Positions 25,192-33,504 of a DNA stretch of 64,000 bases are shown here, one piece after another. The stretch's first letter is position 1, and every line of letters starts with the position of its first letter. Both the position numbers and the translations under genes were made by a program. Origin of the DNA: an uncultured delta proteobacterium (GTDB taxonomy: Bacteria; Desulfobacterota; Binatia; UBA9968); assembly GCA_963745035.1 (NCBI GenBank), contig CAVUVW010000002.1, positions 32,001 to 96,000 of the forward strand. Reading direction: 5' to 3'. The notes below the pieces were generated by a model. The model worked only from the letters and a program-made list of their open reading frames with translations, did no database searches and was not told the origin of the DNA.

Positions 25192-26905
25192 ATGCGTGGC
25201 GGACAAGCGATGCTAAAAGTGATGCAGCGAAGTGGAATCGACTTTATTCTTTCTTCTCCCGGCTCGGAGTGGCCGCCGGTGTGGGAAGCGCTCGCCGAGC
25301 AATCGGCGCAGGGCATCAAAAAACCCGGCTACGTGAACTGCCGCCACGAGGCCGTCGCCGTCGCGATGGCGGCGGGCTATACGAAAGTCACCGGACGGCC
25401 GCAGGTGGTGATGCTCCATGCCACCGCCGGACCCCTCAACGCCGCCATGACTTTGCGCGCGGCGCTGCATGAGCGCACGCCGATGGTGATCATCAGCGGC
25501 GAGATCTCCGCCTACGGCGAAAATACCCGCGTCGCCGATCCCGGCGGCCAGTGGCTGCACGATTTGACCGATCTCGGCGGCTCGCCCGATCTCTTGCGCG
25601 GATGCGTCAAGTGGGCCGACCGCGTGATGGCGCGCCGAGCTGCTCGGGCCGACCATCGAACGCGCCGTGCAGATCGCCCTCGAACCGCCGGCCGGTCCGG
25701 TGCTGATCGGCATTCCGTTCGAGTGCATGATGGAAGAAGTAAATTTGCCGGAGCATGGCCGCTCCAATGAAGTCGTCCGGCCCGACGCCGTCGATGACGC
25801 AGCCGTGGACAAGGCGCTCAATTGGATCGCCGAGGCAAAAAATCCCGTGGCGGTCACGGAGCACGCCGGCGGCGATCCGCGCGCGGTGGAGCGCCTGGTC
25901 GAGCTCTGCGAGCTGCTCTCGATTCCGGTGATGGAGACTTACCGGCCGGCATTCGTCAATTTTCCCAGAAGCCATCCCCTCTATCAGCATCACGATCCTA
26001 AAGTCGTCGACGCTGCCGATCTGGTGCTCATGGTCGACGCGGTCACGCCGTGGTATCCCGCCAGCAAGGGGCCCAAGAACGCGAAGGTGATTTCCATCGC
26101 CGAGGAATTTCCCAATTCGCGACTGCCCTACTGGGGCTACAACGTCGATCTCGCCCTGGTCGCGCCGCCGGCAGCGACTCTGGAGAAGATTCTCAAGAAG
26201 GCGCGCTCATCCGAGCGCATCGCCGCCAACCGCGCCAGCTACGAGCAGCGCCTGGCGCGCAGCCGCGAGCAGCACGACAGCTATTTCGGCAAGCTCAAAG
26301 AGGAAGCCAAAAAACATGCGACCGAGACGCCCATCGATCCGCGCTGGCTGTGCAACGCCCTCAGCGAAACCCTGCCCGAGAACGCGGTGATCTCCGAAGA
26401 GACCACGGTCTATCGTTCGTTGATTCAAGAAGCGATCCCGCGCGACAAACCGCAGTCGTACTTCGCGCGCATCACCGGCGGCCTGGGCGTCGGCTTGAGC
26501 TACGCGCTCGGCGTGAAGCTCGCCATGCCCGAGCGACCGGTCTTCGCGCTCATCGGCGACGGCGCGTTTCATTACAACGCTGTGCCCTCGTGCCTCGGCG
26601 TGGCCGAAGAGTACAACTTGCCGATTCACGTCGTCGTCTTCAACAACGGCCGCTATCTTTCGATGGAGACGAGCCTGATCAAATATTTTCCCGACGGCGC
26701 CGCGAAAAACACCGGCGTTCACTACGGCGCCGAGATCGGCCCGCGGCCGGACTATCAATATTACGGCAAAGCCCACGGCGGCTACGGCTACCGGGTGAGC
26801 GAACCGGGGCAAATCAAGCCAGCGATCGAGAACGCCTTGAAACACGAGGCGGAAAAAAAGCTTACCGTGATCGATGTCGTTCTGAGCGATTTTAATCCGC
26901 GGTGA
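25192..26905 (+). CDS. Thiamine-diphosphate-binding enzyme, acetolactate synthase/decarboxylase-like (frameshift near 25630)
   Basis: SPGSEW, RHE and GDGAF...NN motifs; AGGAG RBS. Confidence 0.85.
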
Positions 26906-26992
26906 TGTGCAACTTACAACTGCCTGACTGGGGACACTTGAATGCCATTCCAAAATCAATCGTGACTAGGAACTAAATCTGCCTGTAAACGC

Positions 26993-27075
26993 CAACAAAA
27001 CCAAGCCCCAAGCGCTGCCTCAATATGGCAGTTCTTGGGGCTTGTTGTTTCAGGTACGCGGACAAAAGACGGACA
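26993..27075. repeat. 83-bp structured direct repeat, copy 1
   Basis: 78/83 identical to 28122-28204 by manual alignment; contains a long hairpin. Confidence 0.9.
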
Positions 27076-27125
27076 GCATTGAGACAAGCGGCGGTTAAGT
27101 CCACAAGGCATTATCGCATTGGTTC

Positions 27126-27650
27126 CTATCGATTGCTTCTCGGTCGTATTGCCTCATCTCTTCCTCGTATCTTCTCGATGACGGTCTTTACCATTGGGAG
27201 TACATTCTGCAAGACGAAGCATTTACATTCTTCATTGTCGAGTTCAACGCCGTAATAATCGTTGAACTTGTGGGTTGTCTCAATCACACGAGGCATTTTC
27301 GTCGAATAATCCAAGCCCCATGAATGCCGATACCACGCACCCGGAAGTGAAGGTGAAGGTGCGGTATAGCCGAACCCTGTGCCTATCAAGCCTTTCTGCA
27401 TGATCCATATACAGCTCGCGTTTTGATGGCATCGTTTGTGACTGCCTCGGAAATTTTTAAGCCTGTATCTGGAGAAAAGCTGGCCTCGGTCTATCAAATG
27501 ACCGAGCCAAGGCTCGTCCGATGGAGTACGCAAAAGCAGAACACTACCGGGATGGATCGCCTGCAAAGTTTGAAGGAGGCTCTTGTACTGCTGATTTTTC
27601 GCTGCTTGGTTTTGGTTAACTTTGTTCCAGAAATCAATTGTTAAAGACAT
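27126..27650 (-). CDS. Hypothetical protein with CHxN...HSW motifs
   Basis: Open AT-rich frame; RCHQNAS, WYRHSWG, VIETT..YYGV. Confidence 0.6.
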   Translation of the reverse strand: MSLTIDFWNKVNQNQAAKNQQYKSLLQTLQAIHPGSVLLLRTPSDEPWLGHLIDRGQLFSRYRLKNFRGSHKRCHQNASCIWIMQKGLIGTGFGYTAPSPSLPGAWYRHSWGLDYSTKMPRVIETTHKFNDYYGVELDNEECKCFVLQNVLPMVKTVIEKIRGRDEAIRPRSNR

Positions 27651-28121
27651 AATCCCATTTAAGATCATTTCCCTAATAATTGATATTAGCGGCACGGCAG
27701 TTCATTGGATGAAAAATTCTTTTGCAGTTCTGCAAGACTTGCTGGCAAATATGAGCACGGCTGATCAAGAGTGAATCCGACAGAGATCAAGCAAATTCTG
27801 AAGCCATTCGACGGACCGGCGGCCTTCATTGAGCCCATGCAGGTCATGCCTGTTCGGGCGCTAACAGACGGCGGAAACTGGACCTCGAGCACGAAGAACT
27901 GGAAAAACGTCTAGAAGCATTGGAAAACTGGTTTAAACAGCAAGAAAGAAATGCCAGGTGAATAATCTTGGCCGACGAATCGACCGTCTGGAGGAAAAAA
28001 ACCGGAACAAACCGCGAGCCACGTGTCATTATCCGGGACGGTCCATTTACGGACGAAGAGACCGCGAGCTTAGAGGAAACGTAAGGGGTGAGCGGTGAAT
28101 GCTAAAACAGCGGTCAAAGCA

Positions 28122-28204
28122 CAACAAAACCCAGCCCCAAGCGCTGCCTCAATATGGCAGTTCTTGGGGCTTGTTGTTTCAGGTCCACGGACAAGAGGCG
28201 GACA
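28122..28204. repeat. 83-bp structured direct repeat, copy 2
   Basis: See copy 1. Confidence 0.9.
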
Positions 28205-28596
28205 AATCTTTCGCCGAGATTAAGCTGTACTCGGGTAACCACTTGAGCTCGGCGGCCTGAGTATCTGGCTATGGAGCTTTCCCTTATTCGGCGGCTCACG
28301 GACTCCCAACCGCAGCTCGGCACCTGCGTGCCGCTCGCAGCTGGCGCTCAACCAGCTGTGTCCAGCTTTACTGCGCGGCGAAGAGTGGGCCAGCCGTCCA
28401 GTTGTTTGTCAATCAAACATCAATAAGCGTCGCACAACATCTGTTTTTCGACATAAAGGTTCTCACAGTTCGGCAACGCGGTAGGGATAAACGGCCGTTC
28501 CCACCTCGATCTTTTAAACTTTGTGTCTAATACTGAACAGTAATTCGTGAGGCGAATGATTAAAGTCTTATATCTAGTGCAAAGGGGAATAATAAA

Positions 28597-28722
28597 ATGA
28601 GCAAACAACATCGCATACGAAAGAAGCGAATACGCAACAGGGCCGCACTCAAACGCAAGACCATAACAGAAAGAGCGGCAAAGAAACTACGTGCAGTTGG
28701 TACGCCGAGAAAGTCCGCTTAG
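28597..28722 (+). CDS. Small, very basic protein (41 aa)
   Basis: MSKQHRIRKKRIRNRAALKRKTITERAAKKLRAVGTPRKSA; AAGGGG RBS; followed by a terminator. Confidence 0.55.
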   Translation: MSKQHRIRKKRIRNRAALKRKTITERAAKKLRAVGTPRKSA

Positions 28723-28745
28723 ACAATCCGAACTGTTGTCCGACA

Positions 28746-28775
28746 GAAAAGGTCAAGTCGAAAAGGCTTGGCCCT
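28746..28775 (+). terminator. Intrinsic terminator split by the IS4 (U-tract now at 30183-30188)
   Basis: Empty site reads aaaaggtcaagtc-gaaaa-ggcttggccc-tttttt. Confidence 0.6.
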
Positions 28776-30173
28776 CACTGCTGTCCAAAATAATTTGAGT
28801 TGGTGTACCTCCGTCTCGCAAAATCAAACGTTTAGGACGGGGCAAGTCACAGTTCGACATTGAGGTTGTTAGTGTGTTGCTGTCCAACATTTCTATCCCA
28901 AGAGCATGAGCTGTTCGCCGTGGGGAGCCGCGATTGGAATTTCAAACGGGGCATCGAGCCACGCCCATAAATCACGGTAGCTCAATAGATTAAACCGCAG
29001 CATGGCCGCCAGATTAGACAGACTCCACGCCCAAGTGGATTTGAGCCACAAGAATTTCAACAGCAACATGGCGATTAATGCTGTCCAGATCTGCACGTTG
29101 ACGGCGTTTTCGCTGGTTCCCACAAAGGTCTTGATCTTTAGGTTTTGCTTGAGCGCTTTAAAAAACAACTCGATCTGCCAGCGATCTTTGTAGATCGCCC
29201 CAATGGTGCTTGCCGCGAGATGAAAAATATTAGTGAGAAACACCAACTCGCGCTCATGTTCAGCATCCCACACCGTCACCTGGCGCAACAAGCTCGAGCA
29301 GCGCTTGCGCGCATACCCGCTGCTCAACTCAATGGTTTCATCGCTCCTGACATTACCCCGCGTCGGCACGGTGTGGTGCTCGACTACCTCGTAAATCATG
29401 TTGGTGCGCGACCGCGTCACAAAATAAATCCCGGACTTAGTCCAGCGTTCATAAAGCGTGTAGTCAAGATACCCTCTGTCTAGGGCCACAATCGTACCTG
29501 GAGCAAAGTTCAGTTTCTGAGCAATCCGTACATCGTTGGTGTCTCCGTCGGTCACCAGCGCCCAGCAAGGTAAACAACCCTGATGGTCCAACTGCAAGTG
29601 CAATTTGACGGCGCCCTTGGTCCGTTGAAACCGCGCCCAGTCAAACACCTTAACGCACAGCTCAATGATGGAAGTATCCAGACTGCGAAGTGGATGCTTG
29701 AATCGAAAGCGACGCTTTTTGGTCGCGGCCAATGCCTGACACCTCTTGAGCAAATCTTCGAACACGCTCTGATAAAGTTGCCAAGGCCGATGAGTATTGG
29801 CATAAGCCAGAGTCGAGCGAGTCGGCGCTTGGCGTAAACCCAAGTGCACCAGCTTCCCCATGGCGGTGGCCAATCCCCCACAGATCTCCCGCAGAGAATT
29901 GGCTCCGCCCATCTGACAGAACACCATCGCCACAAATTGATCCCAACAGCTGAAGCCTTTGGCCCCACGCTCGGCCTGATGTTGGCGGACCGCTCGCGCA
30001 AAGCCGGCCCGATCTACTAATGATAACAATTGCGAAAAACAACTGGCTACGGGTATCATAGATTTACCTCCGACTTGTGAGTAAGACGGCGCAGTCACGC
30101 CGCTGGTGAGATTTGCTTCCCACTATCTTACTCCTGTCGGAGGTTTTTCTGAAAACTATCTTGGACAAGTGTG
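28776..30173 (-). mobile_element. IS4-family insertion sequence with 10-bp TSD
   Basis: Imperfect TIRs cactgctgtccaaaataatt / aactatcttggacaagtgtg; TSD gcttggccct at 28766-28775 and 30174-30183. Confidence 0.9.
28893..30059 (-). CDS. IS4-family DDE transposase
   Basis: SLDTS, ALDRGY and YKDRWQIELFFKALKQ (YREK) motifs. Confidence 0.95.
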   Translation of the reverse strand: MIPVASCFSQLLSLVDRAGFARAVRQHQAERGAKGFSCWDQFVAMVFCQMGGANSLREICGGLATAMGKLVHLGLRQAPTRSTLAYANTHRPWQLYQSVFEDLLKRCQALAATKKRRFRFKHPLRSLDTSIIELCVKVFDWARFQRTKGAVKLHLQLDHQGCLPCWALVTDGDTNDVRIAQKLNFAPGTIVALDRGYLDYTLYERWTKSGIYFVTRSRTNMIYEVVEHHTVPTRGNVRSDETIELSSGYARKRCSSLLRQVTVWDAEHERELVFLTNIFHLAASTIGAIYKDRWQIELFFKALKQNLKIKTFVGTSENAVNVQIWTALIAMLLLKFLWLKSTWAWSLSNLAAMLRFNLLSYRDLWAWLDAPFEIPIAAPHGEQLMLLG

Positions 30174-30568
30174 GCTTGGCCCTTTTTTATTGTTCACCAG
30201 CCAGCCAAGCTCGGAAGAGGTGTTAACGCGTCGTTCAATTCAATCTCAGACTATATCCAAACTTCCCTGACGAATACTTTTCGTCTTGTGTCCTTGTAAA
30301 TTACATTCCATTGCGTGGCCGTAAGTAACGAGTTCTACGGTGTCTGCCATAAATAAAGTTGCTGTTTCAGCAATCTTGAGTGCAGCAGTAATATTCGTGA
30401 TAGCTAACCACAACAGCTAGGGATAGTTCACCTCAAGCCCACCGATAACTTTTACTTCGACAGCCAGGGTAACCTTTGTATACACCGTGAGATACGGAAG
30501 TATACAGTGCGATTCAATCGAGATTGCGTTGATGGAGAATTCAATTCAATCCTGCGATTGCCGCGTGG

Positions 30569-31552
30569 TTATTTGATTACCTTGTCCGCCCGCGCCATCA
30601 CTTTTTGTGGAATCGTCAGACCGATCTGCTTTGCGGTTTTCAGATTGATCACCAGCTCGAACTTCGTTGGCTGCTCGACGGGAAGGTCGGCGGGCTTCGC
30701 ACCTTTCAGGATCTTGTCAACGTATGTAGCAGCGCGGCGGTACAAGTCGTTTCGGTCTGGTCCGTAGCTCATCAAGCAACCGCCCTCGGTCCAACTTGGA
30801 GCATCGCAGATCGACGGGAGTCGATTTTCGGCAGCTAGTTCAAAAAGTTGTTTTCGGTGAACGCCGAGAAAGGGTCCTTGGATGAATATCACCGCTCCGG
30901 CGCGGTCTTTTCTCATTGCCGCGTAGGCGTTTTGAAACTCATCAGGTGATTGAACCGGCAAGGACTGTAAGTGCACCCGCATCGCCAAAGCCGCAATTTC
31001 TGTCTCTTTGACTTCCTTTTCATCGTTCGGATTTCGATGCCAAATCACAGCAAACCGTGTCGCATTAGGAACGCTCTCCTTCAGGATTTCCAATCGCTTT
31101 CCGCTGAGATCCGGTGAGATCGACGTCAGACCAGTTATGTTAGCACCCGGTCGCGCCAGGCTAGCAACGATTGCCTCCCTGACAAGATCGCCCGCGCTTC
31201 CGACAACGATTGGAACCTCGGTTGTTGCCTGCTTCGCAGCTTTAGTGGCCGCAGTGCCCGTTGTTACCATCACCGCTACTTTCAATCGAACCAGCTCTGC
31301 GGCCAAGTCCGGGAGGCGCTCGAATTTTCCCTCCCCGTACCGGTATAGGATTTCGATATTCTTTCCTTCAACATAGCCCAGAGCGATCAACCCCTTGCGA
31401 AACGCTTCACGATTGCCAGATATGGAGGAACCTACGCCACCCGCCAACCAACCGATTGGTACCACTTTCTTTGCCTGCTGCGCGTCGGCTAGGACTGCAA
31501 CGGCAAGCAACACCACTGCTATCAAGACTGGTGACAGACCAATTTTCTTCAT
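30569..31552 (-). CDS. ABC_sub_bind (PF04392-type) substrate-binding protein
   Basis: LGYVEGKNI, SLARPGANITG and [32 protein letters not shown] motifs. Confidence 0.9.
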   Translation of the reverse strand: MKKIGLSPVLIAVVLLAVAVLADAQQAKKVVPIGWLAGGVGSSISGNREAFRKGLIALGYVEGKNIEILYRYGEGKFERLPDLAAELVRLKVAVMVTTGTAATKAAKQATTEVPIVVGSAGDLVREAIVASLARPGANITGLTSISPDLSGKRLEILKESVPNATRFAVIWHRNPNDEKEVKETEIAALAMRVHLQSLPVQSPDEFQNAYAAMRKDRAGAVIFIQGPFLGVHRKQLFELAAENRLPSICDAPSWTEGGCLMSYGPDRNDLYRRAATYVDKILKGAKPADLPVEQPTKFELVINLKTAKQIGLTIPQKVMARADKVIK

Positions 31553-31742
31553 TGCGCACCTCGTTCTTGCGGGTTTTATCACGGATACGGAAGCTGAGAA
31601 AAGTGTTGTTTACGACAGAAGGAAAACCAGATTCATCGAGGGGAAAAGGCTAATTTGACGTAGGATTGAACTGAACGACGCTTCAGTTCGATTACCAATG
31701 CCGGGAAGACTGGATTGATGGAGAATTCATTCAATCCTGACC

Positions 31743-31915
31743 CTACTTGATAACCTTGTCTGCTCTCGCCAGGACATTCAGCGGAATCGTCAGACCGATC
31801 CGCTTTGCGGCTTTCAGGTTGATAATGAGCTCGAACTTCGTCGGCTGCTCCACCGGAAGATCACTGGGCTTGGCGCCTTTCAGAATTTTGTCTATATAGT
31901 TGGCTGCACGCTGAC
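31743..31915 (-). pseudogene. C-terminal fragment of a second PF04392-type gene
   Basis: [33 protein letters not shown]...ARADKVIK with no 5' part. Confidence 0.85.
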
Positions 31916-31942
31916 TGGCAGGCGCGGCCATGGGAGAGATAT

Positions 31943-32847
31943 ATGGAAAATCACGTCAACTATGCTGGCATGAAAGTGTCATCGACCGTTTGCCGATATG
32001 AGCATTGGTCAACGGATTGGTATCCAAAGTGGGCCACTCGCTTCGGACTGCCGACCCATCCGACCGGATCAGCGATCCATCGCAAGCACTGGAATTTTGC
32101 TCAATCGGCCAAGCTTTCGAGGAACGCGGGCTGCTGCGACCTGGCAAGCGCGGCGTGTGCTTTGCCGCCGGCCTAGAGTTTCTCCCGAGTGCTTTTGCCA
32201 ATCTAGGCGCCGATATCTTGGCGACGGACCTAGCCAGCGAGGGCGAATGGGCGGGGCAACACTCTAAATCCCATCTGGATCTGTTCCATCCCGGCATGGT
32301 CTCCCGCGAGATGTTCGATAAACACGTCACGTTCCAGCACGCCGACATGACGAATATCCAAGGCATCGAACACGGTGCCTACGATTTTGTCTGGAGTTCG
32401 TGTGCCTTCGAGCATTTGGGGTCGCTTGATGCCGGTCTCGATTTTGTCGTCAACGCCATGGGTCTGCTGAAGCCCGGTGGCACGGCCATCCACACCACGG
32501 AGTTCAATCTATCATCGAACGACGAAACGCTGACATCCGGTAGCAACGTCATTTATCGGCGCCGGGACATCGAAGCTCTGGATCATCGGTTACGGAAAAT
32601 TCGCTGCGGGCTTGAGCGTGTCGATTATGACGGCGGCACGCACCCATTTGATCTCGATTATGATAGCCCGCCTTTTTCACAAGACGGCAGGCCTCATGTA
32701 AAATTGGAACTCAACGGTTTCATTTCGACGTCAATCATCGTGATCATCCACAAGGGGCTAATCCCTACTCCGGCTTTGGCGACTGGCAGTATTCGACCGG
32801 ATCGGACTTGCGAACTGGGCACCGCTCACGGCGGCGACTCACAATAG
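31943..32847 (+). CDS. Class I SAM-dependent methyltransferase (frameshift near 32090)
   Basis: [29 protein letters not shown] and LKPGG motifs. Confidence 0.8.
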
Positions 32848-33204
32848 GGCGAGCAGACATCGAATTGAGAATGCACCGCTGACCGAATATCAGACGTTCC
32901 GCGCGGCGATGCCTTCGACCGTATTCATTAAATGGCAAGACCAAATTTAGCCTGAGATTGAACTGAACGACGCTTCAATTCGATCTAATCAACGAGAGTG
33001 GACCACTCGATTGGGAATCAAGTGGCCCGGATCCGGCGGAAGCGACTCAGACGCCGCTGCGTCTCGATCTCCGAAAATGCTCCTGGCTTTCTCTTCGTCA
33101 CAGAAGTCATGACCTAAGTGAACGAATACGTCCTTATCGGATTCTATTAAGCAGCATCGCGATAGCGAAAAGATTGGCGCGGTTCACAAACAGGGAGGTG
33201 GGTG

Positions 33205-33504
33205 TTAGCCCAATACCGCTTCGAAGAGACTTACCCAGCCGCGGCTGATGTAATCGCTTAGGGTCAGCACCAGCATGATTCCCAACCAAAATACGCCGGC
33301 GCTGGCAAACAGGATGGTCAAATAACTGCTGTAGCGCAGGTGCATGAAATAGAGCATCACCAGCACCGCCTTGATGACCGCGATCGTGAGCGCGACGGAG
33401 ATATTGCCGATGCGTCCCAGATCGACAAAGGCAATGCCGGTCGTCAGGGCGGTAAAACCGAGCAGGGCGGCGAACACGCTTAAATAAACTTTGGCGGAGA
33501 TCAT
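33205..33504 (-). CDS. ctaF: Cytochrome c oxidase subunit IV (caa3 type)
   Basis: Three TM helices, KAVLVMLYFMHL; operon position. Confidence 0.8.
   Translation of the reverse strand: MISAKVYLSVFAALLGFTALTTGIAFVDLGRIGNISVALTIAVIKAVLVMLYFMHLRYSSYLTILFASAGVFWLGIMLVLTLSDYISRGWVSLFEAVLG

Follow-up and report, generated by a model that had tools for sequence, protein, structure and literature searches.

Here we describe a family of paired 28-bp sites, A and B, that flank single genes, above all genes of PF04392 (ABC_sub_bind) substrate-binding proteins, in an uncultured delta proteobacterium of the Binatia. We propose that site-specific recombination moves the modules between the sites as mobile cassettes, in the manner of integrons or dif modules but with different parts, and we give this proposal about an even chance of being correct. 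The family was encountered at positions 30228-32990 of a stretch of 64,000 nucleotides (positions 32,001 to 96,000 of contig CAVUVW010000002.1; this whole stretch is called the window, and window positions count from its first letter). The window is part of the genome under study (GCA_963745035.1, below also G000), a 7.4-Mb metagenome-assembled genome (MAG) of 28 contigs. An earlier annotation of the locus (the original prediction) had seen in it one cassette-like module bounded by terminal inverted repeats, and had suggested that PF04392 genes may spread as tandem cassettes with dedicated recombination ends that can capture other genes.

The locus is a short, partly decayed array of two units, with 28-bp sites around each module. 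Every full site has two 11-bp arms and a 6-bp spacer (11-6-11). One arm (S, 11-13 bp) is common to A and B, is written ATTGAACTGAA or TTCAGTTCAAT depending on the strand, and faces the gene in both; the other (W) is weaker and specific to the class. Site A lies 5' of the gene and, read toward it, consists of the W arm ATCnnATTGAA, the spacer GCGTCG and the S arm TTCAGTTCAAT (on the plus strand, ATTGAACTGAA-CGACGC-TTCARTnnGAT). Site B lies 3' of the gene and, again read toward it, consists of the W arm ATTGnnTTGAT, the spacer GGAGAA and the S arm TTCAGTTCAAT. Along the direction of the PF04392 gene, the order of a unit is A, a leader of 80-100 nt, the gene, and B. The features of the locus are as follows, with the strand given where one applies.

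30228..30262, plus strand: inverted truncated A-type site, with the spacer GCGTCG at 30228-30233, the S arm TTCAATTCAAT at 30234-30244, and then about 15-18 nt of leader-like sequence
30263..30497: stretch of low GC content to which no gene could be assigned, with the inverted partial site on one side and the end of the array on the other
30498..30522: degenerate A-site remnant (inner arm and spacer, ..GTGCGATTCAAT..) with the S arm missing, directly beside B1
30523..30550: B1 site, ATTGCGTTGAT-GGAGAA-TTCAATTCAAT, 18 nt past the PF04392 stop codon
30569..31582, minus strand: intact PF04392 (ABC_sub_bind) substrate-binding protein gene (Pfam E 1e-44)
31583..31664, minus strand: conserved cassette leader between A2 and the gene start, with the same flank class at seven other A sites
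31665..31692: A2 site, ATTGAACTGAA-CGACGC-TTCAGTTCGAT in plus-strand reading
31693..31708: 16-nt spacer from A2 to B2 (family consensus 10 nt)
31709..31735: B2 site, ACTGGATTGAT-GGAGAA-TTCATTCAAT, with the S arm one base short
31743..31931, minus strand: 3' fragment of a second PF04392 paralog, its last 57-62 codons or so (E 1.4e-12, profile positions 240-293 of 293)
31943..32847, plus strand: methyltransferase-like gene in two frames (31943-32176 and 32005-32847), with a weak PF08241 match (E 3e-6)
32957..32984: A3 site, ATTGAACTGAA-CGACGC-TTCAATTCGAT, alone at the 5' end of the array

Most of what had been read from this locus is thus confirmed, including the intact PF04392 gene of unit 1 (probable start ATG at 31552, giving MKKIGLSP...) and, in unit 2, the 3' fragment of a paralog followed by a methyltransferase on the opposite strand. 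The fragment is 78% identical in DNA to the matching part of the unit 1 gene, and the methyltransferase-like gene occupies the place of the 5' four fifths of the paralog. In a contig of run X5, an additional G follows 32090 and may join the two methyltransferase frames, so the window copy is either frameshifted or mis-assembled. The internal sites of the TTCARTTCRAT type also hold and resolve into A and B sites; the 79-bp compound site at 31661-31739 consists of an A site (31665-31692), 16 nt and a B site (31709-31735). A B-type box matches at 30534-30552, and a second one, lacking one base, at 31720-31737. Allowing up to two mismatches, the 18-mer GATTGAACTGAACGACGC matches three times in the window (30228 on the minus strand, 31664 and 32956 on the plus strand); 0.01 matches are expected in shuffled windows, and none of 100 shuffles reaches three.

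The single module bounded by terminal inverted repeats was not borne out. The arms 30228-30249 and 32952-32973 are indeed complementary with one mismatch, and a repeat finder stretches the pair to 34 nt at 85%; the left arm is, however, an oppositely oriented, truncated site. The partial site at 30228..30262 has no W arm, is oriented opposite to every other site of the window, and is matched by nhmmer with only E 0.3. The left arm (30228-30246) is a truncated and inverted cassette start and not a transposon end. GC content at 30000-30399 is 0.448, and no repeat of the low-GC stretch 30263..30497 was found elsewhere in the genome.

The sites belong to a family that spans the genome. An nhmmer search of G000 gave 45 site matches with E<=0.01, or 51 if E<=1 is allowed; they form 14 clusters, and each of the ten multi-site clusters lies on one strand. 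The 18-mer GATTGAACTGAACGACGC has 15 exact copies in G000, and 31 with at most two mismatches. The S arm preceded by TGA(A/T)-N6 occurs 48 times, 46 of them with a GCGTCG-type or GGAGAA-type spacer; the other two look like chance. In tandem units B and A lie about 10 nt apart, back to back, and form an imperfect palindrome of about 71 nt, the fold of which has two stems, the first of 12 bp, separated by a 6x6 bubble, and then a loop (z -3.9); elsewhere the usual spacer of joined B-A sites is 11-13 nt. Arrays begin at their 5' ends with A-only sites and finish at their 3' ends with B sites, the latter often with the next W arm and spacer and without its S arm; half elements at array ends always retain the gene-proximal half. 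Both W arms measure 11 nt, with no conserved bulge in 73 full sites, and they co-vary (score 0.173 versus 0.139 +/- 0.007 in shuffles); since co-variation is also expected of inverted protein-binding arms, it fits use of the site as a hairpin and as a duplex alike. A second palindromic repeat family, of TTGAAC/GTTCAA units, occurs in the same genome at C11:123759-123840, C11:125199-125320 and C27:328403, and is distinct from the A/B sites.

The family also extends well beyond this genome. Of 24 other genomes in the genus, 21 contain the A motif, and copy numbers range from 0 to 60 (0-1 matches with a reversed control pattern; the unpublished genome G005 enters the genus counts as one row only). 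The motif is also present in two of five genomes of a sister family and in none of 11 genomes of a third family. An exact 23-mer of B is found at 25 loci of a species-representative genome collection and on at least 122 soil-metagenome contigs. Twelve of the 25 loci are labelled 'uncultured delta proteobacterium', and the other labels are Binatia, Pyrinomonadaceae, Blastocatellia, Acidobacteriota, Udaeobacter, Verrucomicrobiia, Limnocylindrales, Syntrophobacter and Deltaproteobacteria.

A set of 80 metagenome loci (290 kb, 138 sites) was used to characterize the cargo. Sites are co-oriented in 33 of the 34 multi-site loci, and all 101 site-PF04392 pairs have the same relative orientation. Across all loci, 540 open reading frames (ORFs) fall into 324 clusters, some of the non-PF04392 ORFs probably being antisense artefacts. 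PF04392 is the dominant cargo, with 104 ORFs in 63 loci and a single orientation throughout. Thus the ends are dedicated ones and are tied to PF04392 genes, as had been supposed. Unrelated cargo, as the supposed capture of other genes would give, also lies between sites: MgtC, SnoaL/DUF4440, glyoxalase, a 1080-aa GH65-HAD protein, methyltransferases, a response regulator, TENA/THI-4, a serpin, a luciferase-like oxygenase, a metallo-beta-lactamase-fold protein and a TIR-methyltransferase. The same cargo and sites recur together in different neighbourhoods. Ends of homology blocks fall into site windows in 58 of 266 cases, the windows making up 3.4% of the sequence, although conservation of the sites is itself part of the cause. 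Two G000 segments with DJ-1/PfpI and CinA cargo (C14:136086-136759 against L032 and C10:18790-19348 against L033) share 89-93% DNA identity with contigs binned as Limnocylindrales and Syntrophobacter, an observation that reflects either recent cross-phylum transfer or mis-binning.

The sites keep fixed positions relative to the start and stop codons. The distance from the stop codon to the start of B falls into classes of 7, 18 and 28 nt (at most 36 nt in 44 of 53 cases, median 27 nt), and that from the end of A to the start codon is 67-122 nt in 32 of 37 cases. Together with the conserved leaders beside A sites, this would be expected if the sites were cis-regulatory, an upstream operator and a downstream terminator or stabiliser inherited through tandem duplication of PF04392 genes. 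Such an explanation appears very improbable to us, because A/B sites also flank unrelated genes, the flanked PF04392 genes are polyphyletic, and mobile elements integrate at one exact phosphodiester position in the sites (see below). A scan of the gene strand gave no sigma-70-like promoter, T tracts are absent from the hairpins, and an Rfam search of 29900-33300 (E<=1) found nothing.

The distribution of sites among PF04392 paralogs points in the same direction. Absence of the motif from other PF04392 loci, named in the original prediction as evidence that would speak against it, was found in part. The genome carries about 100 PF04392 paralogs (134 tblastn segments); only four of the 50 intact ones are flanked by sites and 46 are without them, and the three big PF04392 arrays (C2:1-26500, C14:386000-414000 and C17:177000-204500) have no A/B sites. 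Sites are therefore not a general property of PF04392 loci, in contrast to what inheritance of operators through duplication would give. In a quick maximum-likelihood tree of 107 rows the flanked genes are scattered among unflanked paralogs, and well-supported branches force at least eight label changes. Each of the big arrays consists of about 25 tandem paralogs, many of them frameshifted, with tandem repeats of 7-8 nt directly past the stop codons (GGCGTGA, AGGCAAC, GTCAGTA, GATTTTC).

That the ends behave as recombination targets is borne out by a two-gene mobile element inserted exactly in them, which was found in three genomes (G018, G043 and G014) and on two metagenome contigs. Its first gene encodes a 299-aa tyrosine recombinase (PF00589 and PF13495), for which the best NCBIfam models, XerA/integron-integrase with 181 bits and IntI with 156 bits, both stay under the cut-off; the second encodes a transposase of the IS91 family (431 bits). 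Five complete copies of the element interrupt an A or B site precisely where its spacer meets the S arm, and three more single junctions agree. When the flanks of these five copies are joined, an intact site results, with nothing duplicated or lost. With ^ marking the boundary, seven of eight left ends of this type-1 element read W-spacer^TTGGACTAAACC, the target spacer being GGAGAA in three cases and GCGTCG, GCGTC or GCGTCA in four, and six of seven right ends read ...hairpin-6 nt^T(T/A)CAGTTCAATCC. The two junctions carry unlike spacers, that of the target on the left and that of the element on the right, and hence only a single boundary, that before TT, undergoes exchange, as in integron attI x attC recombination. 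The insertions suggest (G/A)^TT as the point of strand exchange, or CTGAA^C on the lower strand.

Relatives of this element on Bradyrhizobium and Burkholderia plasmids are annotated as 'site-specific integrase' and 'IS91 family transposase', and homologues occur in 438 plasmid records. A subgroup of IS91 with a tyrosine recombinase is recognized (ISfinder/TnPedia); we know of no role assigned to the recombinase in it. The terminal repeat of the plasmid elements is ATTGAACTAAAC in Burkholderia (L204) and GGATTGAAC...GTTCAATCC in Bradyrhizobium (L203), and an inverted repeat copy ...GTTCAATCC precedes the terminal hairpin. The S arm with the first spacer base, ATTGAACTGAAC, equals 11 of 12 positions of the left end of L204, and the 9-mers GGATTGAAC and GTTCAATCC are common to it and L203. 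Thus the A/B sites resemble the IS91 family in that the terminal repeat of the latter nearly equals the S arm, and members in the genus integrate precisely in A and B sites. They differ in that A/B modules encode no transposase or recombinase, have the genes outside the repeat pair, and are without the subterminal right-end hairpin of the IS91-type elements (z -5.1 and -4.1). A second type of IS91-plus-recombinase element, with a 278-aa recombinase and the left end TTGAACTAAACCGCTGCGCGG, was also observed (L018 4093-4929, L022, L023, L197, L198, L201, L202); it is always preceded by a similar ...TATAYTCACTAG stretch which is not an A/B site, so its target differs.

Given this resemblance, the 71-nt element could be a miniature non-autonomous derivative of an IS91-plus-recombinase element, akin to a miniature inverted-repeat transposable element or a REPIN, that inserts preferentially behind PF04392 genes, and the 'cassettes' would then be merely the genes between its copies. 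Its ends do resemble insertion sequence (IS) terminal repeats and point as they do in an IS, its copy number varies from 0 to 60 within one genus, and genes lie outside and not inside the unit formed by the left and right inverted repeats, and no movement of genes was observed. Nevertheless, we consider this origin unlikely. It does not account for the strict orientation of sites toward genes (101 of 101 pairs, 104 of 104 ORFs, 33 of 34 multi-site loci on one strand), for the half elements that always keep the gene-proximal half, or for the same cargo with the same sites in different neighbourhoods; in addition, the 71-nt element is without the hairpin of the IS right end, and a search for the IS91 transposase in G000 gave no match. 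The sites share with repetitive extragenic palindromic (REP) sequences, REPINs and their associated tyrosine transposases (RAYTs) the short palindromic doublets and singlet remnants, the tens of copies per genome and the intergenic location. In contrast to those, they are clustered (14 clusters), co-oriented, tied to one gene orientation and built in the 11-6-11 layout, and none of the five PF01797 (Y1 transposase) genes of G000 adjoins an A/B site.

The likeness to integrons is considerable. According to PMC4889954, the sites of an attC array share one orientation, follow one another at distances below 4 kb and lie 3' of their cassette ORFs, and the same arrangement is seen for A/B sites in ten of ten multi-site clusters of G000 and in 33 of 34 metagenome loci. 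Both systems have single genes, each with an imperfect palindrome close behind it, a very diverse cargo and arrays without a recombinase gene. When folded, an A/B site has an outer box that is paired, then a bubble of unpaired bases and an inner box, much as attC sites are described by the terms R and L box, unpaired central spacers (UCS), extrahelical bases (EHB) and variable terminal structure (VTS) in part of PMC4889954, and at the insertion junctions in A/B sites the exchange involves a single boundary before TT, between unlike spacers. The differences are in the details. Extrahelical bases in the L box make the arms of attC unequal, whereas the arms of A/B sites are equal at 11 nt. The two halves, A and B, also occur on their own as duplex-type sites of 28 bp, each class with its fixed spacer, and one family, PF04392, dominates the cargo.

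The genome under study has a true IntI (TIGR02249, 445 bits against a cut-off of 265), with three canonical attC sites downstream of intI on the same strand (C6:39460-41353). The R'' and R' boxes of attC have the consensus RYYYAAC ... GTTRRRY, and eight canonical attC sites of G000 have these boxes, together with unpaired spacers of 5 nt and a 5' arm with two additional bases. The A side of our sites fits the attC boxes (ACTGAA^C, G^TTCAGT); the B side gives ACTGAAT, with AAT and not AAC. The integron at C6:39460-43340 (L014 1460-5340) is a complete 'inverted' one, with an intI of 376 aa and a lexA-like gene just upstream of it; a cluster of GTTCAA/TTGAAC repeats lies between the lexA-like gene and intI, and a similar GAAC-repeat cluster lies upstream of an intI of G012 (L025).

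Ordinary integron biology might therefore be enough, with the 71-nt elements as an atypical, homogeneous attC family and the arrays as clusters of attC sites lacking integron integrases (CALINs), moved by the genome's own IntI. CALINs without a nearby intI are common, as noted in part of PMC4889954. The fold of the full site follows attC logic, the exchange point and the co-oriented placement just 3' of ORFs agree, and canonical attC sites lie 2-5 nt from four A/B sites. We nevertheless judge this explanation to be quite unlikely. Besides the equal arms, the AAT box and the half sites that stand alone, no A/B site was found on or near 12 IntI loci (one in G000, two in G012, one in G017, two in G014, one in G015, two in G023, two in G006, and the partial intI of G043), and no IntI was found in the 290 kb around the 138 metagenome sites. 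IntI scores above the cut-off in nine of 31 genomes of the genus, and its presence shows no co-occurrence with site number across the 25 genomes scored for both (24 congeners and G000): G018 with 60 sites, G003 with 10 and G004 with seven have no IntI, and G006 and G008 have IntI and no A-motif matches. One A...B interval (C10:16.6-18.7 kb) contains two canonical cassettes. Canonical attC sites close to and inside A/B intervals indicate that the two systems mix and yet are distinct.

The cassette interpretation finds its other precedent in the dif modules. The pdif modules of Acinetobacter Rep_3 plasmids, served by XerC/XerD, are described in part of PMC13141974 as having directional 28-bp sites of 11-6-11 layout, with modules between inversely oriented sites and the two arm types alternating as the inside arm; there, only two neighbouring modules together are expected to be excised, between sites in direct orientation that share a spacer. 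Targeting of dif-module sites by IS elements is reported in PMC10132070. The A/B sites have the same length, the same two 11-bp arms with a 6-bp spacer, and an intrinsic orientation. Their gene modules have S arms inside and the B-A stretches of about 10 bp have W arms inside, so that both the inverse flanking and the alternation of arms are reproduced. However, the 'other' A/B module is only about 10 bp long and there are just two spacers, one per class; A/B arrays are chromosomal and occur in Binatia, whereas dif modules are plasmid-borne, and the enzyme of the A/B system is a candidate only. A dif-like origin of the sites was considered and rejected: the best dif candidate of G000, C26:167396 (...GATAA-GAAATA-TTATGTCAACT), is unlike A and B. 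No third, unique site with an S arm was found in G000.

Several observations weigh against the proposal that A/B modules are cassettes moved by a recombinase. In Logan contigs of public runs and in near-identical contigs, no excision product, circle or one-locus presence/absence of a module was found. The predicted spread as cassettes is partly supported, by the site family, the cargo and the insertion targets, but movement of a module was not observed. Joints of an A site to B1 in Logan contigs carry the 11-13-nt spacer usual in full sites elsewhere, and for this reason are read as paralogous sites and not as circles; a joint of 31729 to 32958 has only 27 nt on one side. Comparison of near-identical contigs for module indels or swaps gave no clean case at 92% identity and three unclear ones at 88%, the best of which, L080 versus L141, shows a sharp change of identity at the B site but involves paralogs. 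The syntenic locus in G013, the only relative with both flanks, holds other genes and not an empty site: 2.9 kb with a multihaem cytochrome and a small membrane protein stand where G000 has a 6.3-kb low-GC island, so no module boundaries can be read from it.

The same holds for the enzyme and for the sites themselves. The IS91-type recombinase is present in seven of 31 genomes of the genus and not in G000, and four genomes with sites (G003, G004, G017 and G024) do not have it. The original prediction had noted no visible recombinase, and none is indeed linked to the arrays of G000, where we found only a 198-aa fragment (C11:130279-130875). The unlike spacers at the element junctions mean that classical two-strand exchange, which needs spacer identity, does not explain element insertion, and the site could be targeted by the HUH transposase of the element in place of its recombinase. 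Of the 73 full sites, 26 carry a mismatch between their S arms at one position. Finally, the labels from other phyla on MAG contigs may be binning errors.

The surroundings of the locus offer some further observations. One correction to the earlier account is that an IS4-family transposase gene (28893-30098) directly adjoins the region. It encodes a protein of 401 aa (NF033592, 245 bits) and belongs to an insertion sequence at 28776-30172, 45 nt left of the inverted partial site, with terminal inverted repeats of about 15 nt and an 11-bp target duplication GGCTTGGCCCT. This element is single-copy, as a search for further copies in the genome found none. Contigs of runs X9 and X14 join 28764 to 30173 and represent the empty allele, so the IS4 insertion is polymorphic in nature. 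A hairpin-containing repeat of 83-104 nt lies at 26993-27075 and 28102-28205, around a 189-aa ORF (27126-27695), and recurs at C11:139079-139181 inside a large A/B array, with copies 94% and 87% identical. The GC content of window positions 26900-33200 is 0.44-0.58, below that of the flanks (0.60-0.64).

If the A/B modules are cassettes, a recombinase of the Xer/IntI kind would bind the arms (consensus ATYRNNYTGAW) and exchange strands at the boundary between spacer and S arm. Sites of the same class in direct repeat (A x A or B x B) could then excise or insert one gene together with one B-A junction; the excised unit would be the equivalent of an integron cassette, or of two paired dif modules, one of them reduced to 10 bp. 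The two different fixed spacers are proposed to prevent recombination of A with B, and hence inversion. As judged from the sequences, the enzyme family is most likely the tyrosine recombinase of the IS91-family elements in the genus, which would act in trans; the terminal repeat of these elements and the S arm are almost the same sequence. As no such element is present in G000, its arrays, including that in the window, are probably relics, and the decay seen in the window (the truncated paralog, the one-base deletion in B2 and the inverted fragment) fits this.

More tentatively, we suggest that soil Binatia, and possibly other soil phyla by transfer, possess a second gene-capture system independent of integrons, with paired 28-bp sites of two spacers, an IS91-borne Xer/IntI-like recombinase and exchange at one boundary, serving mainly to shuffle and diversify orphan PF04392 genes; this broader view is possible, though in our estimate doubtful. 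Among the papers listed by term searches of the open-access literature (PMC and bioRxiv, not subscription journals or supplements), we found no description of A/B sites or PF04392 cassettes, in line with the original prediction, and no paper on integrons in Binatia. To our knowledge, two established systems transfer single genes in the form of cassettes bounded by sites: integrons and the dif modules of Acinetobacter. If the proposal is true, the A/B sites would define a third, which has sites and probably also an enzyme of its own, is abundant in soil metagenomes and is specialised in one large family of binding proteins. The sites are short and well defined, and thus suited to straightforward recombination assays. 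Such a system would widen the picture of accessory-gene shuffling outside clinical bacteria and would give a function to the tyrosine recombinase of a widespread IS91 subgroup, and it could account for the very large expansions of PF04392 in these genomes.

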